Shown here in pieces: positions 2,715 through 30,430 of a DNA stretch of 64,000 nt. The notes under the pieces are model-generated. The model saw nothing but the letters and a program-made list of their open reading frames with translations, made no database searches and was not told the origin of the DNA. Both the position numbers and the translations under genes were made by a program. The stretch is from NCBI GenBank assembly GCA_030651475.1, contig JAUSEW010000002.1, positions 83,927 to 147,926 of the forward strand, written 5' to 3'. The stretch comes from Candidatus Levyibacteriota bacterium (lineage in GTDB: Bacteria; Patescibacteriota; Microgenomatia; Levybacterales; UBA12049). Numbering within the stretch: position 1 is the stretch's first letter; each line of letters begins with the position of its first letter.

Positions 2715-2737
2715 TCCCACATTCCATGTGGGAGCAC
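2715..2737. repeat. GC-rich hairpin (tcccaca ttcca tgtggga) with arm gtgggagcac, flanking the 3' end of RAYT copy 1
   Basis: The hairpin is read from the sequence. gtgggagcac (2728-2737) is the exact reverse complement of gtgctcccac at 3426-3435. Confidence 0.7.
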
Positions 2738-2746
2738 GACTTTTTA

Positions 2747-3406
2747 CTATTTTTCTTCGTCTGGATCTATAAGCAAGCTATAAATCTCTGGATTATCGGT
2801 TTCGGTTTCCTCTTCCTCTACAAATGATTGGTAGCTTAAGTTGGGGATAGTTTTTGAGAAATAAGACAGGATAAATTCCGTATTGCAAAAAGGATGCTTA
2901 TCCTTAGATAAATAATAGCTGTATGAGGAATAAGGATAGAGATTAAGACTTTCTTTATGCAACTTCAAGGGATTACGATGAATATACTTTGACACTTGCA
3001 ATAAATATCCGTCATTTTCAATAAGCTTAGCCTTAAATGTACCTTGAAAGAGGGGCCCGATACGATCATACTTGGTATTGAAATATCTAGTATAGCTATT
3101 GGCAAATTTCCTTATGAAATTTGTTATTCCGCCATCTGCGTTTTGTTTTAGCAGAAAGTGAAAATGGTTAGGCATTAAGCAGTAGGAATAAATCTCTACC
3201 AATTCAATTTGGTTTTCGATCTTTTTAGCTTTTTCTATTCCTCTTTTAAAATCGGAAAGTTTTGCCGGCAGCGGAGCTTTGCGATAGAAATCCATAGTTA
3301 ATAAAAACTGTTGATAGTCACGTTTGCCAATAAAAATATTTCTCTTTTCTACTCCTCGGTTATAGATATGATAATAGTTGCCGTTAACAAAAGGAGGATT
3401 AGTCAT
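2747..3406 (-). CDS. REP-associated tyrosine transposase / IS200-like Y1 (HuH) transposase, copy 1
   Basis: It has YHIYNRG, the HuH motif CLMPNHFHFLL, and a downstream Tyr in YIHRNP. The paralog at 20151-20750 shares these blocks. The start is placed at the internal Met (MTNPPF...) because the annotated N-terminal 12 codons overlap a flanking hairpin. Confidence 0.7.
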   Translation of the reverse strand: MTNPPFVNGNYYHIYNRGVEKRNIFIGKRDYQQFLLTMDFYRKAPLPAKLSDFKRGIEKAKKIENQIELVEIYSYCLMPNHFHFLLKQNADGGITNFIRKFANSYTRYFNTKYDRIGPLFQGTFKAKLIENDGYLLQVSKYIHRNPLKLHKESLNLYPYSSYSYYLSKDKHPFCNTEFILSYFSKTIPNLSYQSFVEEEETETDNPEIYSLLIDPDEEK

Positions 3407-3425
3407 TATTAGATGATAAATATTC

Positions 3426-3449
3426 GTGCTCCCACTTGTCAAGTGGGAG
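3426..3449. repeat. GC-rich hairpin (ctcccact tgtca agtgggag) flanking the 5' end of RAYT copy 1, in inverted orientation to 2715-2737
   Basis: 8-bp stem hairpin. It shares an inverted 10-mer with the other flank. Confidence 0.7.
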
Positions 3450-3605
3450 AGGGAGAGGGTGAGCTAGTTCGGCATGCGAATAGCTACAAACTGATTCAAA
3501 GACTAAAAGATGAGATTTTGTTTTGGGATGGGGAAGCTTGATTTTATTAGCGAATTATTGGTATTATTTGTAGTATTGACAGTATTTCAAGGACGGTGAT
3601 TATTT

Positions 3606-7004: not shown

Positions 7005-7166
7005 AAAATATACTTCAAGGCGGGGGAAAGGGGAGGGATATAGTTTGATATAGTAATTAATTAAATATTATAGGACACTTCGTCGCTTCGTTCCTCAGTG
7101 TGGATAACTTCTAGTTTTCACAAGCTTAGCCTCTACTTTTCACAGGTTTACTCTTTGCTCATTCAT

Positions 7167-7260
7167 CGGGGGCCTGCCTCGGACTTTCCCTCCCGCCAGT
7201 GCTCCTTTGACTTCGTCAAATATGCGCGCTGTCGGGAACCCTTCCAGTCGAGTCACCCCT
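7167..7260. repeat. structured ~95-nt palindromic repeat, copy A (intergenic)
   Basis: Roughly 88% identical to 11640-11735. It has terminal GGGG/CCCC and CTCGGAC/GTCGAG stems plus an internal TTTGAC-ttc-GTCAAA hairpin. Confidence 0.8.
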
Positions 7261-7777
7261 CTTCCTTATTTGAGGGATCGCAAACTGCTTCTAGCGAATA
7301 AAATACGAATGTCCGAATTGATGGTTTTTGAAGCTAAAACGATACGTTTAGGCTGATTTATCAATCTAAATTATGGTATAGGCAGATGCCCTCGGGGAGG
7401 GAGGCGTTAAAACGAAATTAAAAATTAAAAATGAAAAATTAAAAGCTAAGACAGCGGAGGACATAGGCTCTTATAAGACGGGAAACGAAATAGTCCTCTT
7501 CTGTTAAGGATTGGTCGAAAAAGGTTTTTGACGGGAAAATAGCACTGGAAGTAGAGGAAGTGATTACGTCGTACAATAATACTTTTACGACGTCAGCCAG
7601 CTTCAGTTATTCGGAGAAGTGGCCTAAACCTTGCCGAAATTTTCAATTTTTAATTCTCAATTTTCAATTACGCTACTTACTTCTCTTAATTTTGCGGCTT
7701 ATTTTTCTCCCAAAAAATGCCTATTTAATCCCCCACTATAGGGCTACATAGAGAAAATTTCATGAAGCTATTCGAAG

Positions 7778-8266
7778 CTATTCTTTAATCTTTCTTGCTA
7801 GTTTCGCTAATTTTTTATCATCAGCTCTTTTATGATCATGGGACGAAATGTAGCCTTCGTATTTTTCAAAGAATTTATCAATGCCGGAGCGAAAAGGTTT
7901 CCATTTGCCCATTTTGGTGCCGTGCATGGGGAAAAGTTTGGCATGAACATGATCTACGCCAAAACCCTCAAGAATCATGCCGGTTCTGCCAACGTTTTCT
8001 AGCTTCTTGTCTAACAATTTTCCTACTTTTTTGGCAGCAACAGCCAGATCTCTGAAAACTTTTTCCGGCAGATCGAATGCGTAGCTTGGGTAATGCCTTT
8101 TGGTCGTTATAACGGAGAAGCCTTCTGTATTTGGGAAAATTGACAGAAAAGCAAAATGGCTGGCATCCTCCCAAATTTTGTGACTCGGAGATTTACCGCT
8201 GACAATATCGCAAAAAATACACCCTTTCACATTTTGAATATAGCAAAATTGCCAAACTCTGTCCAA
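7778..8266 (-). CDS. HIT (histidine triad) family hydrolase
   Basis: It has the N-terminal CIFCDIV...HFAFLSIFP HIT fold signature and a GVDHVHAKLFP histidine-triad-like motif. Confidence 0.75.
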   Translation of the reverse strand: MDRVWQFCYIQNVKGCIFCDIVSGKSPSHKIWEDASHFAFLSIFPNTEGFSVITTKRHYPSYAFDLPEKVFRDLAVAAKKVGKLLDKKLENVGRTGMILEGFGVDHVHAKLFPMHGTKMGKWKPFRSGIDKFFEKYEGYISSHDHKRADDKKLAKLARKIKE

Positions 8267-8311
8267 TTGACAATGTTATTTTCCGTATATGTATGATATT
8301 ATACGTGCTGT

Positions 8312-8971
8312 ATGGAAATTGGAACAAGCGAGGGAAAGCCATCTGGTCTCAATCGTGAAATTTCAGAAGGAGAAGCAAGAGAATTTATCCAATCATTACC
8401 TCCAGAAGGCATAATGTTACACGGTACATTTCGTAGGAACATTAAAGACATAAGAAAGAAGGGTTTACTGCTATCTCCACAGCTTAGAAGTGTATACGGC
8501 CTCTTCTTAAAAATTAACATAAACCCATCCTCCGATGAATATTCTCCAAATGACATAGAGAAAATTATGAAGGATTTAAAAACAGCAGTCTGGAATTGTA
8601 CAGGGTATGGAATGCGAGGTACGGGGCATGATAATAAAGATGATAATATGCCAGCTGTAGTGATAGCTAAACTACCTTCCGGGATCATTCCATTAAGGAT
8701 GAGCCATTCGGGACTTCCCGAAGGTAGATCTGATAAATTAATTCCAGCTGGAGATATATTAGCAATAGAGTCCCTTACTCTTCAAGAGTATCTGCAGATT
8801 CCCAAGGAAGAGAAATTTTGGCCAAAACCAGAATTAATAAATATTATGGTAAAGAAAATTATAAACAGCATAATCAACGAGAATAAAAATAATATAAAAC
8901 CAGCAGGAAATATTTTACAAAGGGTTATTGGGAAGCTTTCGAAACAACTTTCTTCTGCACATCTTCATTGA
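8312..8971 (+). CDS. hypothetical protein
   Basis: 219-aa ORF with no recognisable motif. Confidence 0.3.
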   Translation: MEIGTSEGKPSGLNREISEGEAREFIQSLPPEGIMLHGTFRRNIKDIRKKGLLLSPQLRSVYGLFLKININPSSDEYSPNDIEKIMKDLKTAVWNCTGYGMRGTGHDNKDDNMPAVVIAKLPSGIIPLRMSHSGLPEGRSDKLIPAGDILAIESLTLQEYLQIPKEEKFWPKPELINIMVKKIINSIINENKNNIKPAGNILQRVIGKLSKQLSSAHLH

Positions 8972-9024
8972 CAATTTTATTTCCGCGTCGCATAATATAA
9001 TAATCCACGTCGCAAAATAATTTT

Positions 9025-9957
9025 ATGACAACTTCTCTGCCCGCCTTGATTGACCAATTCTTGGAATACCTTGAGATAGAAAAGAATTGTTCGAAGCTGA
9101 CGATTCGAGATTACAGGCATTATTTAGAAGTTTTTGCAAATTGGCACTCTTCCACCCAAGGCGATAAATCCATAGGAAGCCTGGATTTGGCAACGGTTAG
9201 GAAGTATAGGGTTTACCTTGCCAATCGAGTTGATGCGAAAGGTTTGACTTTGAAAAGAGTTACCCAGAACTATTATGTTATCGCGCTTCGGTCATTCTTG
9301 AGATTTTTAATTAAGAACGATATCAAAACTCTTGAGCCTTCCAAAATTGATTTGCCCAAAACCGAAAGCAGAAGCCTTAAGTTTTTGGAAAAAGAGCAGG
9401 TCGATAGGCTTGTTACTGCCTGCGATACATCCAAAGAAGAAGGCATAAGAGACAGAACGATTCTGGAGCTTTTGTTTTCAACAGGACTTCGTGTTTCAGA
9501 GCTTGTAAAGTTAAATCGAGACCAAATAAATCTGGACAGACGCGAATTCGGGGTAATTGGCAAAGGAGGGCGGGCAAGAATAGTATTCGTGTCGGATCGG
9601 GCGGCGCAATGGATAACAAATTATCTGAAGAAACGGGAAGATGTGTTTAAGCCCTTATTTATCCGCTATTCGGGAAAAGTAATTGAAGACAATGGCGGAG
9701 AAAAAATGAGATTAACAGCCAGAAGTATCGAGCGGATTGTCAAAAAGTATGTTCGGGCAGTCCGGCTGCCGGTAGATGCGACTGTTCACACGCTTCGCCA
9801 CTCTTTTGCGACCGATCTCCTGACGAATGGCGCCGATATAAGATCGGTTCAGGAAATGCTCGGACATAAAAATATCGCCACAACCCAAATCTACACCCAC
9901 ATTACGAATAAACAGCTTCGCGAGGTCCACCAAGCCTTCCACAGTGGGAATAAGTAA
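9025..9957 (+). CDS. tyrosine site-specific recombinase, XerC/XerD family
   Basis: The C-terminal catalytic box HTLRHSFATDLLTNGADIRSVQEMLGHKNIATTQIYTHI is present, with the R...HxxR...Y residues. Confidence 0.85.
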   Translation: MTTSLPALIDQFLEYLEIEKNCSKLTIRDYRHYLEVFANWHSSTQGDKSIGSLDLATVRKYRVYLANRVDAKGLTLKRVTQNYYVIALRSFLRFLIKNDIKTLEPSKIDLPKTESRSLKFLEKEQVDRLVTACDTSKEEGIRDRTILELLFSTGLRVSELVKLNRDQINLDRREFGVIGKGGRARIVFVSDRAAQWITNYLKKREDVFKPLFIRYSGKVIEDNGGEKMRLTARSIERIVKKYVRAVRLPVDATVHTLRHSFATDLLTNGADIRSVQEMLGHKNIATTQIYTHITNKQLREVHQAFHSGNK

Positions 9958-10006
9958 AGCGCTATTGGTGATTAATGTTGGTTTTGTGATATAATCCTAC
10001 TTAAAT

Positions 10007-10201
10007 ATGACAGAGGCTGATTTTGCATCTACTACGGTAAAGCCGGAAAAAGCTGTTACACCAGAATTCGATAAATTGGTTAGAAGACTAACGCCACAGG
10101 CCGACAAAAATGTGGAGCGAGTAGATCAAATTGCTGTTGGACTAACAGTTGCTGCGAATCATTTGGCTGCTAAAGCGCAAAGAGTAGAACCTAAAAAATA
10201 G
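10007..10201 (+). CDS. small hypothetical protein
   Basis: 64-aa ORF between xerC/D and pyrB. No motif. Confidence 0.2.
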   Translation: MTEADFASTTVKPEKAVTPEFDKLVRRLTPQADKNVERVDQIAVGLTVAANHLAAKAQRVEPKK

Positions 10202-10209
10202 TCAATTCC

Positions 10210-11205
10210 TCACCCATTTGTTTTGCCCAAAACTAATGATATGATCGCCATTCGAACATACATTCCGTTTCTAATCTGATTCCTTAAGTATACTGCTCGA
10301 GGATCATCGTCAACCTCTTCTAATATTTCTCCAACTCGAGGAAGCGGATGCATCAAAATCATATCCTTATTTCCGTAATTCCCTAGGAGTTGCTTGTTTA
10401 CTACAAAACTATGTTTGAGTTTTTCGTACTCACTGGGATCTGCAAATCTTTCCTTTTGCGTTCTTGTCCAGTATCAAAAATTACAATCTCTTGGAATTTC
10501 TTCCACGTCTTCAATCTCAATTATTTTTAATCCTTTGCTTTTAAGTTTTTCCAGCAAATCTGTTTGCAGCTTAAGCTCTCTTGGAGAAAGAAGATAAACT
10601 GTACTGTTGGGATATAAAGACAAACCTTTAAGTAGTGAATGTACCGTTCTTCCATTTTTTATATCTCCGGCAAAGAGTCCTTTTAATCCCGAAAGTGTTC
10701 CTATCTTTTCATGGATTGTATAAAGATCTAGAAGCGCCTGGGTTGGATGTTCGTCTATTCCGTCTCCAGCATTTATAACTGGAACAAATTTTGCAATATC
10801 TGCCGCTTTTTGTGCGCTTCCTACTTCTGGGTGTCTTAGGATAATTGCATCTGAATATGCTTCGAAAACCCTAATTGTGTCTTTAAGTGTTTCCCCTTTT
10901 GAGACAGAGGAAAATTGTTGAGGATTCTCAACTACAATTGTTGATCCTCCTAATCGTTTGGTTGCCGCATCAAATGATCCCCTTGTTCTCGTTGACGGTT
11001 CATAGAAAAGAAGCGTAATGATATTTTCTCTAAGTAGGTCATTTGGCTTAGCATTTTTGACAACTTCTGCCATTGCCGTGGTTAGATGGAATAAATAAGA
11101 TATGGATGCAGGATTAAATTGGTCAATTGACAGGATATCTTTTCCCTTGAAGTCCCCGTTTATTTTTTCTGGACGGAAATCTGGTAAAACTAATCTCTCT
11201 GGCAT
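10210..11205 (-). CDS. pyrB: aspartate carbamoyltransferase catalytic subunit, interrupted by an in-frame TGA at 10474-10476 (pseudogene or readthrough/recoding candidate)
   Basis: The upstream part has the STRTR and HPTQAL motifs. Continuing the same frame past the TGA gives YWTRTQKERFADPSEYEKLKHSFVV...MILMHPLPRVGEILEEVD...RMAIISLVLG, which aligns to the conserved ATCase C-terminus (E. coli ...ILYMTRVQKERLDPSEY...VLHPLPRVDEI...). Total length 331 aa is normal for PyrB. Confidence 0.8.
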
Positions 11206-11232: not shown

Positions 11233-12162
11233 TTATTTGTCAATACTGTTTTTAGTAGCTCCTATGAGGTTTTTCAAAAGCATGGCGACGTTAATCGGGC
11301 CGATTCCCCCAGGGCTTGGAGTGTAAAAAGAGGCAATGTTTTCTATGTCTTTTTCCTCGTAGTCTCCGTGAAGTTTTCCATCGTTACCTTTATGTAGGCC
11401 AACACTTACAAGAATTACTCCTTTCTTAATCATCTTCGAATTTATGATATTTTCTTGCCCGACAGCGGAAATAATAATGTCGGCATTTTTGGTTAATAGC
11501 TCATGGTCTATAGTCTTGCTATCCACAATTAGGGGTTTAACCTCTAATTGTTGCAAAGCGTTAATTATTGGTTTTCCTCCTGTTTCTCCTTTGCCAATAA
11601 CGACTATTTTTTTGGATTTTAGCCAATCTTCAAAAGCTCGGCGGGGTCCTGCCGAAACTTTCCCTCCCGCCAGTGCTCCTGCGACTTCGTCTTCGATGCG
11701 CGCTGTCGGGAACCCTTCCAGTTTCGTCACCCCTCGCATATATATCTCCTGTAAAATTTTCATAGCTGCCAAGCTAATTGGTGATTGGAATTCGGATTTG
11801 GGATTAAATCCGTCGATATCTTTTTTAGGATTTACAGCCAAAGTTATTGCTTTTATATCAATATGGGAAGGAAGCGGTTGTTGGACAATAATTCCGTGAA
11901 TTTCGGGGTTTTTATTTAATATGCCAATCTTTTCCAATAACTCCGCGTTCTTAATTCCGGAATCTAAATTATATAAAGTTGTTTTAATTCCGACTGTTTC
12001 CCCTTTTAGTATTTTCTGTTTAACGTATGCTTTTGAAGCAGGATCTGTTCCAACAAGAATAATTGCCAAATGGGGGAAGATATTTCTTTTTTTAAGATTT
12101 TCTACTTTTTTCTGAAGTTCTTTTAGGATTTCTCCGGCGATTTCTCTTCCGTCAATCTTCAT
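11233..12162 (-). CDS. folD: bifunctional methylenetetrahydrofolate dehydrogenase/cyclohydrolase FolD carrying a ~35-aa in-frame insertion
   Basis: Conserved FolD blocks are present (KQKILKGETVGI, DIDGF, VVIGKGETGGKPI, PSPGGIGPINVAMLL). An extra segment YMRGVTKLEGFPTARIEDEVAGALAGGKVSAGPRRAFEDW is encoded by repeat copy B. Confidence 0.85.
   Translation of the reverse strand: MKIDGREIAGEILKELQKKVENLKKRNIFPHLAIILVGTDPASKAYVKQKILKGETVGIKTTLYNLDSGIKNAELLEKIGILNKNPEIHGIIVQQPLPSHIDIKAITLAVNPKKDIDGFNPKSEFQSPISLAAMKILQEIYMRGVTKLEGFPTARIEDEVAGALAGGKVSAGPRRAFEDWLKSKKIVVIGKGETGGKPIINALQQLEVKPLIVDSKTIDHELLTKNADIIISAVGQENIINSKMIKKGVILVSVGLHKGNDGKLHGDYEEKDIENIASFYTPSPGGIGPINVAMLLKNLIGATKNSIDK
11640..11735. 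repeat. structured ~95-nt palindromic repeat, copy B, inserted in-frame within folD
   Basis: Aligned to copy A (7167-7260). The GGGG...CCCC and CGAAAC/GTTTCG closing stems co-vary relative to copy A. Confidence 0.8.
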
Positions 12163-20075: not shown

Positions 20076-20118
20076 TGACCCCTGATTCTGACCCCAGGGG
20101 TCAACCCGCGGGGTTGAC
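20076..20118. repeat. cluster of GC-rich palindromes (gaccccaggggtc; gtcaacccgcggggttgac) upstream of RAYT copy 2
   Basis: Read from the sequence. The inverted partner aacccctggggtc lies at 20756-20768 and a third copy at 20543-20555 inside the gene. Confidence 0.7.
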
Positions 20119-20150
20119 GCATGTAAATTCCTCCACTATTATATTAGAGT

Positions 20151-20750
20151 ATGGCAACTCCAGTAAGATATTTCCAAAAGGGTTCCTATTACCATGTATA
20201 TAATAGAGGCAATAGGAAGCAGAATATTTTTCTTTTTCCTCCTGACTATGAGCGTTTCCTAAAAAGGGTAAGGGAATACAAGGAAAAATTTAGGATAACC
20301 ATCTTAGGTTATTGCCTTATGCCAAACCATTTTCATTTCCTATTGAGACAAGATTCTGACGTGCCGTTAACATCTTTTATGTTAAGGTTAGGGACAAGCT
20401 ATGCGAAATATTTTAATATAAAATATAGACAAGTCGGTAGTCTTTTTCAGGATCGTTTTAAGACAAAGCTCGTTGAGAATGACGAATACTTATTGCAGCT
20501 ATCTCGATATATCCATCGTAACCCCAAGGAAATTTTGCCCTCGACCCCTGGGGTTGAACTCGCCAGTTATCAATGGTCAAGCTATCCTTCGTATTTAAAG
20601 TTAGCAAATGATGAATTGACGGAATCAGCATTTATTCTTAATTATTTTTCCAAAGCAAATCCAGCTAAAGACTATAAAAAGTTTGTGGAATATGATTCTA
20701 ACGAAAAAGAGCAGTCATTGACAAGCGATTTAATCTTAGAAGATTCCTAG
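20151..20750 (+). CDS. REP-associated tyrosine transposase / IS200-like Y1 (HuH) transposase, copy 2
   Basis: YYHVYNRG, CLMPNHFHFLL (HuH) and YIHRNP Tyr motif. About 45% identical to copy 1. Confidence 0.7.
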   Translation: MATPVRYFQKGSYYHVYNRGNRKQNIFLFPPDYERFLKRVREYKEKFRITILGYCLMPNHFHFLLRQDSDVPLTSFMLRLGTSYAKYFNIKYRQVGSLFQDRFKTKLVENDEYLLQLSRYIHRNPKEILPSTPGVELASYQWSSYPSYLKLANDELTESAFILNYFSKANPAKDYKKFVEYDSNEKEQSLTSDLILEDS

Positions 20751-20755
20751 CTTTC

Positions 20756-20768
20756 AACCCCTGGGGTC
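20756..20768. repeat. inverted copy of the accccaggggt palindrome downstream of RAYT copy 2
   Basis: Reverse complement of 20090-20102. Confidence 0.6.
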
Positions 20769-20791
20769 GGAATGTTACTGAAAAGCAATTC

Positions 20792-25689: not shown

Positions 25690-26286
25690 ATGAAAAGAAT
25701 TTATAACAAGCTTTTTTCTTTCGGTTCTAAGGGTTTTACTCTAATTGAGCTACTTGTGGTTATAGGTATCCTAGGCATTCTTGCTTCAGCTCTTATCGCT
25801 ACCATTGACCCCTTCGAACAGCTCAAGAAAGCAACAGATGCAAAAATAAAAAATATTACCGTAGAGTTCCAGACAGCGTTGGTAAGGTATTACACAACAC
25901 ATGGTAAATTCCCTTGGAATGATCAAGCTAGCATAGATAACAATACTAATCCGGCTTGTACGGCGCTTAGTTCAGCTGTGATATCAGGTCAAAAACTTAA
26001 CGTTGCAGCAGTAAAATCATGTATTGATAATGCAGGTGGTGCAAGCTTGATTGCAGAGGGAGAGCTAAAAAGTTCATTCACGTCTAGCGTAGATGATCTT
26101 GGCCAAGTGTATCTCACTTGGGATCCGGCCAATGCCACAAATGCAGTTATTTGCTTCAGTCCAACATCAAAATCTCAAAAAGGCGCTCCGGATACGAAAT
26201 GGACAGATGCACAGGGAGCCACAACCGGAGCAACTTGTCCAAGTTCAACAGCAGCAGACAATGTATGTTTCTGGTGCACACAGTAA
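25690..26286 (+). CDS. type IV (major) pilin, PilA-like
   Basis: Class III signal peptide KGFTLIELLVVIGILGILAS with Glu+5, and C-terminal Cys pairs. Confidence 0.8.
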   Translation: MKRIYNKLFSFGSKGFTLIELLVVIGILGILASALIATIDPFEQLKKATDAKIKNITVEFQTALVRYYTTHGKFPWNDQASIDNNTNPACTALSSAVISGQKLNVAAVKSCIDNAGGASLIAEGELKSSFTSSVDDLGQVYLTWDPANATNAVICFSPTSKSQKGAPDTKWTDAQGATTGATCPSSTAADNVCFWCTQ

Positions 26287-26347
26287 ACTTCATATATCCT
26301 CTTAAATAAATAATTTGCTATACTAAATTAAACTTTGATTTTATTGG

Positions 26348-27136
26348 ATGAATAGCTTATTCGCTTTTTATATTTTTGTCATCGGTTTATTTATCGGGTC
26401 GTTTTTAAATGTCTTAATCGATAGGATTCCCAAAAGAAATTTATTCCGAAAGAAAAGGTCGTATTGCGACTCGTGCAAGAAAACTCTCAAATGGTATGAT
26501 TTAATTCCTGTTTTTTCATTTATTTTTTTGCAAGGAAAATGCCGTTATTGCCGCTTCCCTATTTCACTTTATTACCCTATCGTTGAGTTGATTACGGCGT
26601 CTTTATTTGTACTGACGTTTAATTTTATTTCTTCAGGCGGAATAATGAATCAAGAATTAAGAATCATGGACGCAATAGGACTAGTATATTACCTATTTAT
26701 AATTTCTTCTTTCATCGTTGTTTTTTTTACAGACTTAAAATATGGAATTATTCCGGATAAAGTTTTATTGGCCGCAATTTCGCTTTCTATTTTTTACTTA
26801 TTCTTTATTCACAATTCATTATTCATGATTCATCTTTTGTCTGGCGTTGGAGCGTTTTTATTATTCTTACTGTTGCACTTAATTACCAGAGGTAAAGGGA
26901 TGGGATTTGGAGATGTAAAGCTTGTTTTCTTGATTGGTCTTTTTTTGGGCATTCTTAATGCAATTCTAGCTTTATACTTAGCATTCTTGACAGGGGCTGT
27001 GGTTGGGCTCATACTAATTTTATGGGGAAAAAGAAAGTTTTTTGGGGGGAAAATTCCCTTCGGTCCGTTTTTGGTTTTGGGAACATTTATAAGTTTATTT
27101 TTGGGAGAAAAAATAATCAAGGTTTTACTCTGGTAG
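26348..27136 (+). CDS. pilD: prepilin peptidase / N-methyltransferase PilD (A24 family)
   Basis: N-terminal CDSC...CRYC zinc-binding tetracysteine and a GMGFGDVKL catalytic-Asp region. Polytopic. Confidence 0.85.
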   Translation: MNSLFAFYIFVIGLFIGSFLNVLIDRIPKRNLFRKKRSYCDSCKKTLKWYDLIPVFSFIFLQGKCRYCRFPISLYYPIVELITASLFVLTFNFISSGGIMNQELRIMDAIGLVYYLFIISSFIVVFFTDLKYGIIPDKVLLAAISLSIFYLFFIHNSLFMIHLLSGVGAFLLFLLLHLITRGKGMGFGDVKLVFLIGLFLGILNAILALYLAFLTGAVVGLILILWGKRKFFGGKIPFGPFLVLGTFISLFLGEKIIKVLLW

Positions 27137-27891
27137 AGCTTGTTGTTGTGCTGGTAATTTTGGCAGTTCTTGGAGGCATAAGCCTAACCCTACTTAATCC
27201 TAAGAAATATATTGATCAGGCAAAGGATGCGAAAAGAGCTCATGATTTAACTCAAATTCAGAGCGCGCTGGATACGTATTATAATGATTACAATTATTAT
27301 CCTACGTTATTAAGTCAATTAAACAACGATCCGACTAAAATTTATATGAAAGATATTCCTACGGATCCGGATACAGGTTTTTTTTATCCTTATGAAATTA
27401 ATGTTGATGAAACTCTTCCGCAATGGAACATACTATTTGCAAAAGTTTCTACGAAGTCAAACATGCGGTCGGCTTGTCCGTTAGATCAGTTTTCTGACTC
27501 CGGTTGCATACCACCAAACTATGACTCTTCATATATCTGTGTTTTATCAGGGAAAATTGATTGCGATTATGTTAAAGCCGCAATAGTTCTGCCGCCCATA
27601 GTTCCAACTGGCGCTCCAACTTCAATACCAACGCTTAATCCTACGCCCACTACTCCTTTTGGCGGTCCGACAAATACTCCGACTCCGACCGGATTCTTAA
27701 CGCCAACTCCAACAGGCACACTTAACCCAACTCCAACGTCTATTTTTACTCCAACGCCCACATTTCCTCCGCCTCCCACACCTACTCCTACCCCTTGTTC
27801 TAAGGATTGGGCTTGTAGGCCAGGATGCAATAATGTGCCAGCGAATACCGGAGATTTTTGCTCACCGACTTGTAATGGAGCTTGCCAATGA
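27022..27891 (+). CDS. pilin-like protein with a Pro/Thr-rich linker and a Cys-rich C-terminal knot (start uncertain; ORF overlaps the pilD 3' end by 115 nt)
   Basis: GFTLVELVVVLVILAVL prepilin motif at codon 34, then a (PTxT)n linker PTPTTPFGGPTNTPTPTGFLTPTPTGTLNPTPT...PPPPTPTPTPC, then CSKDWACRPGCNNVPANTGDFCSPTCNGAC. Confidence 0.6.
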   Translation: MGKKKVFWGENSLRSVFGFGNIYKFIFGRKNNQGFTLVELVVVLVILAVLGGISLTLLNPKKYIDQAKDAKRAHDLTQIQSALDTYYNDYNYYPTLLSQLNNDPTKIYMKDIPTDPDTGFFYPYEINVDETLPQWNILFAKVSTKSNMRSACPLDQFSDSGCIPPNYDSSYICVLSGKIDCDYVKAAIVLPPIVPTGAPTSIPTLNPTPTTPFGGPTNTPTPTGFLTPTPTGTLNPTPTSIFTPTPTFPPPPTPTPTPCSKDWACRPGCNNVPANTGDFCSPTCNGACQ

Positions 27892-28424
27892 GAACAAAAA
27901 AAGGTTTTACTCTTATAGAGCTGATTGTTGTTATAGGTATTTTGGCTGTGTTGGCAAGTGCTTTGATAGCTATCTTTAATCCGTTTACGCAGTTTCAGAA
28001 AGCCAACGATGCCAAAAGGAAATCCGATCTTTCTCAAATCCAAAAAAGCCTGGAAGTTTATTATCAGGATAATGGCAGATATCCTTCGAATACAGCAAAT
28101 TACGGAAGTGGCATAGCCGATTATCAGATTATTAGCCAGGATGCAAACGATCCTGTAAAAGAATGGGGTACTTCTTGGCAGCCATATATAAATATTTTAC
28201 CCAAAGATCCAAATAGTGCAAAACGATATGTATACTATGTTTCGCCTGCAAGCAATGGACAAGGTTATTATTTGTATGCTAGTCTGGATAGAGCAGGCAA
28301 AGATCCGCAGGCATGCAATACTTCAGGAACGGATTGCGTAAATGTCCCGGCTCCTATGTCTTGCGGATATAACAATGACTATAATTGCAATTATGGAATA
28401 TCAAGTCCGAATTTAAGCCCATGA
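27882..28424 (+). CDS. type IV pilin-like protein
   Basis: MPMRTKK|GFTLIELIVVIGILAVLAS class III signal. Confidence 0.7.
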   Translation: MPMRTKKGFTLIELIVVIGILAVLASALIAIFNPFTQFQKANDAKRKSDLSQIQKSLEVYYQDNGRYPSNTANYGSGIADYQIISQDANDPVKEWGTSWQPYINILPKDPNSAKRYVYYVSPASNGQGYYLYASLDRAGKDPQACNTSGTDCVNVPAPMSCGYNNDYNCNYGISSPNLSP

Positions 28425-28894
28425 CAACAATTTTAAATTTCAAATTTCAAATTTCAAATTCGAAGAGGGGGTTTACTTTGATAGAACTCTTGATTGTAGT
28501 TTCTATTATCGGAGTATTGGCAACTTTGCTGATGACAAATTTTATAGGCATCAGACAGCGTGCAAGGGACGCCCAACGCAAAGGAGATCTCAAGCAGATT
28601 CAATCATCGCTTGAGCTTTACAGAGCAGATCAAGGAAGTTATCCCGCATCTCCTTTAGCAGCATGTGGAGTATCGAAACTTGAGGGAGGGAATCCCCCGG
28701 TTACATATATGCAAAAAATTCCATGCGATCCATTAAATGTCGCACCATATGCATATACCTATCTTTTAAACGGCGATGGTACATATAGCATACATTCATG
28801 TTTAGAAAACGTAAGTGATTCACAGAAAGACGCAGTAAATAGTAGCCCTTGTGATGGAACAAATAATTGGTCTTTTACAGTTCAAAATCCATGA
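28421..28894 (+). CDS. type IV pilin-like protein with an (AATTTCA)n tract in its leader (alternative start 28385)
   Basis: MTTILNFKFQISNSKR|GFTLIELLIVVSIIGVLAT. The leader is encoded by the heptanucleotide repeat. Confidence 0.65.
   Translation: MTTILNFKFQISNSKRGFTLIELLIVVSIIGVLATLLMTNFIGIRQRARDAQRKGDLKQIQSSLELYRADQGSYPASPLAACGVSKLEGGNPPVTYMQKIPCDPLNVAPYAYTYLLNGDGTYSIHSCLENVSDSQKDAVNSSPCDGTNNWSFTVQNP
28436..28463. repeat. heptanucleotide tandem repeat (AATTTCA)x3 plus a degenerate unit, between the pilin ATG and the prepilin cleavage site
   Basis: Read from the sequence. Shares an identical 26-mer with 2395-2429. Confidence 0.9.
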
Positions 28895-29382
28895 AAAATT
28901 ATGGTTTTACTCTTATTGAGCTTATCGTTGCGTTTTCCGTAATAGCTTTATTGTCAACAGTTGGAATAGCATCTTTCGTAAGCTACAGCCGTAATCAAGC
29001 TCTTGTCGTAAGCGCTAAAGATTTGGTAAATACTCTTAATCTTGCGAAATCCCGCAGTCTGTCTCAAGTTCTGGAGCCTTCGCAGTGTTCAGGACAGAGT
29101 CTTATCGGTTACGAAGTCAGATTGTGCGGTCTTCTAACATCAAGCTGTCCTCCGCTAGCAGACTATAGTTACGAACTAAACGTAGTATGCTCGGGAATTA
29201 TCGTTCCGCCGATAGAAACAAAAAAGTTACCACCCGGTGTTAGTTTTGATAATGCAACTCAAACTACATCGTTTCTCTTCCCAATTCTAACAGGCGGAGT
29301 GAAGGGCAGCGGGGCAATTGTTTTATCGGGATATGGACAAACAAAAACAGTCACAGTTAGTAATTCCGGTGTTATCCAATGA
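28891..29382 (+). CDS. minor pilin / pseudopilin
   Basis: MKNY|GFTLIELIVAFSVIALLST. Confidence 0.6.
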   Translation: MKNYGFTLIELIVAFSVIALLSTVGIASFVSYSRNQALVVSAKDLVNTLNLAKSRSLSQVLEPSQCSGQSLIGYEVRLCGLLTSSCPPLADYSYELNVVCSGIIVPPIETKKLPPGVSFDNATQTTSFLFPILTGGVKGSGAIVLSGYGQTKTVTVSNSGVIQ

Positions 29383-29870
29383 AAATAAAAAAGCTACTTT
29401 TCAACAGGTACGAACGCGGGCAGACTTTAATTGAAGTTTTAGTTGCTTTGGGCGCGGCAGTGGCAGTTCTTTTTGGCATAACAGTTGCGGTTATCTCCTC
29501 GCTTAATAATGCGCAGTTTACTCAAAATCAAAATCTAGCTAATAAATATGCTTCGCAGGGAATGGAAATCGTAAGACAGCTTAGGGATTCCAGCTCTTCC
29601 GGTCTTTCCCAGTATTCAAATACTTACTATTGTTTGGGTCAGGATGGAGAATTAAAGGCGAAAGGCTTGGGGTGCGGACAAAACGTGGGAGTTTTTGTAC
29701 GGGAAGTTAATTTGGATCAAAATTCTTCTTCATGCGGCGAAACCGGTGTTTTGTCAACAGTATTAGTTTCATGGTCAGATAGTGCTTGCGCAAACATTTC
29801 CAATCCCTATTGTCACCAAGTGAAATTAATTTCCTGTTTTTCTAATCCTGCTACAATATCAGCACCATGA
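29379..29870 (+). CDS. pseudopilin (GspI/PilV-like)
   Basis: ERGQTLIEVLVALGAAVAVL N-terminal hydrophobic helix with Glu+5. Confidence 0.55.
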   Translation: MKIKKLLFNRYERGQTLIEVLVALGAAVAVLFGITVAVISSLNNAQFTQNQNLANKYASQGMEIVRQLRDSSSSGLSQYSNTYYCLGQDGELKAKGLGCGQNVGVFVREVNLDQNSSSCGETGVLSTVLVSWSDSACANISNPYCHQVKLISCFSNPATISAP

Positions 29871-30430
29871 GAAAAAATAATAGGGGTTTTACTCTCGTAG
29901 AGCTTTTGGCTGTTTCTGCGGTTATGGTTGTAGTTAGCGTCATAGTAACGGCTACGATAACGTCTTCTCTTCGCGGAACTACCAAGACGAATACGATTAA
30001 TGATGTCAGGCAAAACGGCAATTATGCAATTGCTCAAGTTTCAAAAATGATTGAATACGCCAAAAGTTTTGGCGGAGTTAGCAATGATTATAATGGACCT
30101 TTCGATTCAAACTGTACTAACTTAACGCCTCCCTTAACTCCAACACCTACGCCCTCACAGTTTAGCTATATTAAGATAACAGGATTTGACAATGGACAAA
30201 CAATTTTTGGCTGTTCTTCGACAATTGCGTCCAATAGCGCATCTTTGATAGACACTAATTTAGTTTCCGTAGATTCATGCTCATTTACATGCGAGCGCGC
30301 AAGGATTACTGATTCTCCAATCATTGGAATAAACTTTTCTCTTAGCAAGAAAACAACCAGTAGTTTATTCGAGAACAAGGCTTTCGTCCCATTTAAAACC
30401 TCGGTTAAAATGAGAAATTTAAGTAATTAA
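29867..30430 (+). CDS. minor pilin
   Basis: MRKNNR|GFTLVELLAVSAVMVVVS. Confidence 0.6.
   Translation: MRKNNRGFTLVELLAVSAVMVVVSVIVTATITSSLRGTTKTNTINDVRQNGNYAIAQVSKMIEYAKSFGGVSNDYNGPFDSNCTNLTPPLTPTPTPSQFSYIKITGFDNGQTIFGCSSTIASNSASLIDTNLVSVDSCSFTCERARITDSPIIGINFSLSKKTTSSLFENKAFVPFKTSVKMRNLSN

Follow-up and report, generated by a model that had tools for sequence, protein, structure and literature searches.

The folD gene (11233-12162, minus strand) of a 64-kb stretch of Candidatus Levyibacteriota DNA (GenBank contig JAUSEW010000002.1, positions 83,927 to 147,926; source sample SRR13727527; hereafter the window) contains a GC-rich hairpin of 91 nucleotides (nt) that recurs in an intergenic region of the window and, beyond it, in at least about 95 further copies, essentially all of them in genomes of Patescibacteria, also called the Candidate Phyla Radiation (CPR). 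The copies form a CPR/Patescibacteria repeat family. We consider it probable that the family is a dispersed, non-autonomous hairpin repeat that behaves like the Rickettsia palindromic elements (RPEs), the folD segment being one of its copies. On this best reading, palindromic repeats that enter coding sequence occur in a phylum in which, to our knowledge, they have had no earlier report. The starting point of the analysis was a first-pass annotation made from the sequence alone, which described the folD segment as a structured in-frame repeat whose stem changes compensate each other relative to an intergenic copy.

Two copies of the hairpin and the FolD insert

The window, 64 kb of a contig of at least 158 kb, is AT-rich (38% GC) and was searched for copies of the element. 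Copy A is a hairpin of 92 nt (7168-7259) within an open reading frame (ORF)-free stretch spanning 7005-7777, and copy B is the hairpin of 91 nt (11643-11733) within folD; both have a GC content of 0.62-0.64, versus 0.38 for the window, and they are 89% identical over 79 ungapped nt, in agreement with the positions and the similarity first described. Similarity between them extends no further than the hairpin foot, and the sequence on either side of copy A has no relation to folD. Two core blocks of 22 and 25 nt occur exactly twice each in the window, versus no occurrence in shuffled sequence. A covariance model of the family assigned 107.5 bits to copy B (11629-11745) and 92.3 bits to copy A, with 12.8 bits for the next best match, and hence no third copy was found in the window with this model.

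Both strands of the two copies fold into a long hairpin (-36 to -38 kcal/mol). The purine-rich, better-behaved hairpin strand is the minus strand of the window, which is the sense strand of folD, and the two copies share this orientation. Copy B was delimited by sequence, covariance model and fold, and its foot pairs GGGG with CCCC (11730-11733 with 11643-11646). The first arm of its second helix, P2 (11653-11659, CGAAACT on the plus strand), pairs with the second arm (11720-11726, AGTTTCG), as indicated by the fold and by covariation of the corresponding columns across the family. In copy A, the P2 arms (7178-7185 and 7246-7252) read CTCG(G)ACT and AGTCGAG, so that the arms are complementary within each copy, and the tip forms a TTTGAC-TTC-GTCAAA hairpin (7207-7221). 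The GGGG/CCCC foot, the complementary second stem and the tip hairpin of copy A are therefore all present as the first-pass annotation had them. The conserved core of copy B (11664-11712) comprises helix P3, with fixed mismatches (sense CUCCCGACAGCGCGC and GAGCACUGGCGGGAG), around a variable tip, and its blocks are identical in both window copies and in the folD copies of relatives. An RNase P-like string in copy A (GGGAAAGUCCGAG) was dismissed as a coincidence of the variable P2 stem.

The effect of copy B on its host protein, an essential enzyme, was assessed by comparison with solved FolD structures, in which just 25 residues align to residues 123-174 of the 309-residue FolD encoded in the window. 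This leaves roughly 27-31 extra residues, close to the 35 or so estimated before, and places them in the interdomain loop, after the final helix of the catalytic domain and before the VVIGKG strand. The peptide contributed by copy B corresponds to residues 143-175 (RGVTKLEGFPTARIEDEVAGALAGGKVSAGPRR), encoded by 11638-11736 on the minus strand. Both FolD Pfam domains are intact despite the insert, and in an AlphaFold model with a mean predicted local distance difference test (pLDDT) score of 89.7 only residues ~141-175 are of low confidence (47-70, versus more than 90 in the flanks), the insert forming an excursion from two confidently modelled domains. The exact protein (P0001) is found in an NCBI metagenome-assembled genome (MAG), and the identical folD sequence is found in a separately deposited Logan assembly (L125). 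If the insert is translated, LEGFPTAR and IEDEVAGALAGGK would be among its tryptic peptides.

The nearest FolD proteins are those of Candidatus Levybacteria, and in an alignment of 28 FolDs the interdomain loop spans from 0 to about 65 extra residues. Several of these relatives carry peptides homologous to the insert (EG(F/L)PTAR...AGP), and in the DNA of three of their folD genes the element has the same site, orientation and frame as in the window, with identical core blocks and with different P2 and tip sequences. A further relative (L126) has a diverged member of the family in folD, with a core helix changed on both sides (GUCCCAUC/GAUGGGAC). The folD segment is thus not ordinary protein sequence of the lineage, since the folD genes of relatives carry the same repeat family. 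The closest FolDs (62-68% identity) lack the element and more distant ones carry it at the same site. The string TPRVEPQ in those closest proteins may, judging by its sequence, be a leftover of the 3' end of the element. The 22- and 14-nt core blocks show no synonymous differences across four FolD lineages whose proteins are about 55% identical.

Other Levybacteria FolD homologues (P0009, P0014, P0058 and P0082; alignment columns ~190-250) have unrelated low-complexity inserts in the same loop (..SNFEFRYSNF.., ..NQNSN..). These may be translated AT-rich simple repeats like AATTTCAAATTTC, which is found in the window at 2395-2454 and 28429-28488, and the FolD interdomain loop seems to be a general insertion sink. 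Protein-level searches yielded little. A 44-residue version of the insert had no match in a set of 5.8 billion proteins, in a search that is unreliable because it also missed FolD itself. An exhaustive HMMER search with a 33-residue peptide returned two matches only, a number that is uninformative on prevalence; one was a spurious ORF across an orthologue of copy A and the other a chance match to a repeat in a surface protein of 3588 residues.

Distribution and fold of the repeat family

The first-pass annotation had suggested looking for further copies, and many were found in related genomes. A pattern derived from the two invariant core blocks was scanned over one genome per species and identified at least 118 loci, with about 85 of those listed being true elements. 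The covariance model gave 99 hits in 647 kb of these loci, including core variants that the pattern had missed. The copies found belong to Levybacteria, Roizmanbacteria, Doudnabacteria and Saccharimonadia and number from 2 to at least 14 per genome, with at least 14 in a Roizmanbacteria MAG and at least 6 in a contig of 1.23 Mb. Copies of a single genome agree in P2 and tip but each has outer flanks of its own, as would be expected for recent copying; in the Roizmanbacteria MAG, for instance, seven copies share P2 and tip and four others share a different P2, all with different outer flanks.

Apparent occurrences outside this radiation did not hold up. A 'Nanoarchaeia' contig (L046) encodes a bacterial RecO (recO) and is not evidence of archaeal spread. 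Contigs labelled 'uncultured Gammaproteobacteria' encode proteins up to 55-79% identical to those of loci labelled as CPR (Levybacteria or Roizmanbacteria), several of them in common gene clusters. The loci with this label (L007, L025, L091, L094, L111, L116 and others) have a GC content of 36-45%, one of them spans 804 kb, and their MAG labels look wrong, as does that of L046. Matches in GC-rich genomes were chance coding matches without the rest of the element. No true copy was found in phages, plasmids or IMG/VR, where three partial hits were GC-rich chance matches, and none of the loci found is labelled Rickettsiales, the true copies being on CPR-type contigs. Searches of Rfam 15, at the gathering threshold over the window and at E≤10 and E≤1 over the copy A region, returned nothing relevant and no group I or group II intron or ribozyme. 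The core strings were unmatched in full-text literature searches, and topical searches found no description of the family.

The unit of the family is a long imperfect hairpin of about 90-110 nt. Read 5' to 3' on the purine-rich strand, its consensus runs from the P1 foot (GGGG or CGGG) through UGRC, P2 (6-7 nt of free sequence), GGAAGGG and CUCCCGACAGCGCGCA to a variable tip (5-30 nt, rarely more), and returns through GAGCACUGGCGGGAG, GGAAA, P2', GRCAGGA and P1'. P1 and P2 are separated by a short helix containing a mismatch, either G.A or A.G. P2 is a helix of 6-7 bp on which pairing is the sole demand, and it is followed by a purine-rich internal loop with a conserved GGG, by the nearly invariant irregular helix P3 and by the tip. 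The invariance of the P3 core was partly required by the search, since the sample is biased by the core pattern, and copies found by the model include one A-U for G-C exchange in P3. Because the ends of the hairpin cannot be fixed to the nucleotide, whether its length is a multiple of three is uninformative.

The initial proposal that selection acts on secondary structure was borne out by covariation. An RNAalifold consensus contains 21 pairs, 11 of them with compensatory changes. The named structure was then evaluated over 88 copies, using slid partners and 500 shuffles as controls: 95.5% of cells are paired (34-45% with slid partners), 216 cells are changed on both sides (66 in shuffles), and the covariation score of 0.318 compares with 0.131 in shuffles, none of the 500 reaching the observed value. 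The changes extend to non-canonical parts of the fold. UGGC..GACA swaps with UGAC..GGCA, a recurrent CGAG/CGAG motif would form tandem G.A pairs, a Doudnabacteria variant replaces the internal loop with a UUUU/AAAA helix and keeps the G bulge, and G-U pairs are concentrated in the sense (purine-rich) orientation. Taken as sequence patterns, the swaps, the tandem G.A pairs, the loop variant and the G-U bias indicate a single strand that folds, as opposed to a plain duplex site. Discrete tip types recur across genomes with different P2 sequences. A small set of more divergent variants was also noted (L077 1899-2051, L107 509-625, L008 1702-2236 and L034 88-295): another small palindrome (CGCCTGCTTGACAGGCG) interrupts two of them, a pair of copies with an additional internal-loop hairpin lies 381 nt apart in one ORF of 501 residues, and one copy has a 117-nt tip insert.

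Frame, orientation and origin of the copies

Twenty-nine of 89 copies lie inside long ORFs and keep the frame without a stop, the other two thirds (60) being intergenic. No copy breaks a frame: all four candidates proved to be adjacent genes with the element between them. The hosts include, in addition to FolD, DnaX (in three genomes), tRNA-guanine transglycosylase (TGT, at two different sites), LeuRS, TopA, RecJ, RadA, DprA, MurJ, phosphoribosyl pyrophosphate (PRPP) synthetase, ribosomal protein L1, transketolase and glycosyltransferases, and the housekeeping hosts have domain matches on both sides of the element. The genic copies are divided almost evenly by orientation (15 sense, 14 antisense). 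The frame reading ..FPPASA..RAVG.. is the one used by every one of the 14 antisense copies, even though the two unused antisense frames, which would encode a hydrophobic or a Cys-rich peptide, are stop-free in 74 and 70 of the 89 copies; by our own calculation, such uniform use would have p ~6e-7 if use followed openness. The invariable frame and the bias towards one antisense frame argue that the element is not removed from RNA. The behaviour of the genic copies also upholds the initial comparison with REP/MITE-like repeats (repetitive extragenic palindromic sequences and miniature inverted-repeat transposable elements) that are tolerated in-frame as RPEs are.

These observations bear directly on the small excised RNA that the first-pass annotation had offered as an alternative and that is now disfavoured. 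If the segment were removed from the folD transcript, as an intron-like element, as a processed small RNA or by translational bypass, FolD would lack the insert. The compact, stable and covarying structure, with a P1 foot that joins the ends, would suit such a process, and introns are described as frequent in CPR genomes (PMC13011429). Against it, all 29 genic copies are in frame and none is out of frame, when, by our own estimate, about 25% would appear to be in frame by chance if the frame were of no consequence; the antisense copies keep to one of three mostly open frames; the near-equal use of both orientations could not be accommodated by a strand-specific RNA reaction; and no group I or group II intron or ribozyme matches in Rfam up to an E-value of 10. 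We regard removal as very improbable. Scarcely more credence, if anything a shade less, is given to a protein insertion of the ordinary lineage-specific sort, or to a mobile module at the peptide level; the peptide would then be what is selected, and the resemblance of the DNA to 7168-7259 a by-product such as a gene fragment. The variable length of the FolD loop and the recurrence of EG(F/L)PTAR would fit a peptide under selection, but the homology stops exactly at the ends of the hairpin and leaves out the unrelated flanks of copy A, other genes read the same DNA in three frames and from either strand, two thirds of the copies are intergenic, and the stems covary at the nucleotide level.

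A dispersed RPE-like repeat would account for the distribution as follows. Copies would be moved in trans to many places by a putative enzyme, for which the conserved core would be the recognition target of the mobilising machinery, and selection would have retained those copies that came to lie in intergenic DNA or, in-frame, in surface loops where a protein permits them. The folD copy would be transcribed and translated with its gene, and FolD would gain a hydrophilic, Gly/Ala/Pro-rich loop of about 31 residues between its catalytic and Rossmann domains, with its fold intact; the peptide would be tolerated rather than useful. We infer transposition as the origin of the copies. Many copies have a perfect, copy-specific inverted repeat of 6-12 bp outside the foot, and in one case (L004) the 5' arm aligns with homologous glycosyltransferases, which identifies it as host sequence, and the 3' arm resembles an inverted copy of it. 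This single case suggests that the hairpin may be extended after insertion by intramolecular template switching, which would replace sequence at constant length and so keep the frame. Direct repeats of at least 2 nt (RA, mostly GA or AA) are present on both sides of 26 of 84 copies, versus 12.7 in shuffles, and could be closing G.A pairs.

Candidate genes for mobilisation were considered in the window, which encodes two Y1_Tnp proteins (IS200/RAYT-like, HUH; RAYT, REP-associated tyrosine transposase). Inverted REP-like hairpins, CTCCCAC-N7-GTGGGAG, lie on both sides of the first gene (2750-3391, minus strand; region 2716-3450), and hairpins of the GACCCCAGGGGTC type on both sides of the second (20151-20750, plus strand; region 20085-20773); two more Y1 genes in a relative (L002) each have their own flanking hairpins. 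A link between these genes and the element was rejected, given that the flanking hairpins differ, that the covariance model finds no element beside them and that no Y1 gene is near other copies. Likewise, no autonomous version with an ORF in the tip, nor halves split around an ORF, was found, the largest tip insert being the one of 117 nt.

Several observations weigh against a dispersed mobile repeat, and the first three of them favour a structured module with a function in the host. The orthologous copy A in a relative from Hainich groundwater (L127, well H14, ~85% identical) is identical at 91 of 94 positions (96.8%), versus 67%, 82% and 76% for its flanks, when a dead selfish copy should decay. 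The folD and dnaX copies are 62-81% alike between genomes, versus 55-67% for adjacent coding DNA. For 50 of 60 intergenic copies, the flanking GC skew is negative when read in the sense orientation, and of those between co-directional genes 25 are antisense and 7 sense, a bias that a neutral passenger would not need. Longer flanking direct repeats are not enriched among 84 copies, with no clear target-site duplication; no empty-site folD allele was found in a scan of metagenomes, and hence no filled and empty pair; and, in 650 kb of loci, neither a transposase nor any other ORF shows linkage to the copies. Finally, the argument that genic copies would be translated and not spliced out comes from sequence statistics only. 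The skew bias is also seen over all copies (61 of 82 negative in the sense orientation, p ~1e-5), where skew correlates with gene direction (r = 0.61), and is slight in genic copies (18 versus 11). Possible causes of the conservation and the bias are purifying selection on each copy, as for a host function, conversion or re-insertion from other copies, and orientation-dependent counter-selection, on which the GGAGG-like runs of the sense strand bear.

Given how well orthologous copies are conserved, there is room for a host function: on RNA or single-stranded DNA, the core would then serve a conserved CPR factor as a site of binding or processing, purifying selection would keep it wherever it lies, and the genic copies would be tolerated by-products. 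Analogues would be the gyrase or IHF sites of REPs and bacterial interspersed mosaic elements (BIMEs), a terminator or a stabiliser of mRNA ends, or a signal for uptake or recombination, all of which are compatible with a mobile origin. Beyond the conservation and the orientation bias, such a function is favoured by the core blocks that lack synonymous differences among four FolD lineages, by the non-canonical features that are kept or swap in step (the UGGC..GACA and UGAC..GGCA exchange, the GGG bulge and the tandem G.A of CGAG/CGAG), by the tip types that recur with different P2, and by a T-richer tail in the antisense orientation (a mean of 3.3 T in the 8 nt after the stem, versus 1.75 in the sense orientation). 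On the other side, unrelated genes house one third of the copies, in either orientation, genomes differ in copy number (from 2 to at least 14), the closest FolD relatives lack the element, gene conversion or re-insertion could also conserve copies, and no partner protein was found in the loci examined. A role as an intrinsic terminator is weak, since the T-rich tail is equal in genic copies and at least 5 T in 8 nt are found for only 12 of 59 intergenic copies. We consider a host-functional module unlikely, if deserving of serious attention. A bolder formulation appears marginally less likely again: the element would be a CPR-wide structured RNA or single-stranded DNA module under purifying selection at each locus, essential genes included, acting with a conserved partner, or moving by an undescribed mechanism that leaves inverted target duplications, or both. 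If that were true, the same nucleotides must also encode a tolerable peptide. A dispersed, RPE-like repeat is the explanation that we retain as probable.

Neighbouring features, known repeats and implications

Some further features of the window were recorded. Cumulative GC skew has its maximum near 10 kb (window positions ~8000-11000), where gene orientation flips from plus to minus, and a gene for a XerC/D-type recombinase (9025-9957) adjoins the peak; a replication terminus is probably located there, between copies A and B, which lie on the same strand. Within the ORF-free stretch that contains copy A, a block of about 90 nt (7535-7625) with a ACGTCGTA...TACGACGT hairpin is ~100% identical in L127, versus ~76% for the surrounding intergenic DNA, and 7290-7410 is likewise well conserved. 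The block had no Rfam match and may be an undescribed small RNA or regulatory region. Next to folD, pyrB (aspartate carbamoyltransferase; 10210-11205, minus strand) has one in-frame TGA at 10474-10476 (..DCNF*YWTRTQKERF..), at a position that is a sense codon in relatives. The gene is split identically in L125 and is intact, with 318-319 residues, in L001 and L002; the TGA could mean that the gene is a pseudogene or is read through, or that both assemblies share a base-call error. In a gene cluster at 25725-29944, the 5' ends share a conserved stretch of 35-76 nt (..GGTTTTACTCT..GAGCT..), which by its sequence can be read as the N-terminal signal of type IV pilin or pseudopilin genes and would fit a CPR surface-appendage locus.

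Among known repeats, the closest counterpart is provided by the RPEs. The ten RPE families (RPE-1 to RPE-10; Ogata et al. 2000, 2002) have units of about 150 bp, nearly half of which lie in-frame in unrelated genes whose folds are compatible with them (PMC10969869), and a 2024 review of prokaryotic MITEs treats RPEs as an extreme case and leaves Patescibacteria unmentioned (PMC10969869). Both the RPEs and the CPR family consist of short (~100-150 bp), palindromic, gene-less repeats dispersed in small AT-rich genomes, with a large share in-frame in housekeeping genes and the rest intergenic. The CPR family, however, belongs to a phylum other than that of Rickettsia, and its likeness to the RPEs is one of behaviour. 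It also differs in being GC-rich relative to its genome, in having a nearly invariant core across several CPR classes, in using both orientations with defined frames and in its often copy-specific inverted flanks. Bacterial MITEs that enter genes include ERIC, Correia/NEMIS and the Coxiella QMITE1 and QMITE2 elements (PMC10969869, PMC5896051). They share with the CPR family a small size, a lack of autonomy, foldability, multiple copies and occasional in-frame fusion to ORFs, whereas the CPR family has no parent insertion sequence with matching ends in the loci examined and no conserved terminal inverted repeats past the GGG/CCC foot.

Elements of the REP/REPIN-RAYT systems and those derived from IS200/IS605 are also imperfect hairpins with conserved mismatches that would be read as single-stranded DNA; an orientation bias relative to GC skew may be a further likeness, and the window encodes the two Y1_Tnp proteins described above. 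In contrast to the element of about 90 nt, one third genic, REPs are extragenic sequences of 20-40 nt that flank a RAYT gene, and the Y1 genes of the window and of L002 have other small hairpins at their sides and no element. A different parallel is offered by the GC clusters and 'byp' elements of yeast mitochondria, reportedly a subject of Lang et al. in 2014. They are GC-rich palindromic mobile sequences in an AT-rich genome and can sit in coding regions. The byp elements are skipped by the ribosome, whereas the frame statistics of the CPR family indicate ordinary translation.

Coding palindromes have so far been treated as a peculiarity of Rickettsia, and the same phenomenon is now encountered in a vast and unrelated radiation of ultra-small bacteria, where enzymes central to replication, translation and one-carbon metabolism are affected. 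The family accounts for some of the unexplained insertions in CPR proteins, can serve as a marker for mis-binned and mislabelled contigs, and is a caution for annotators and structure predictors that such inserts are repeat-derived. A compact, covarying and conserved hairpin also raises the question of what recognises the element, and its better-than-neutral conservation makes that question worth asking.

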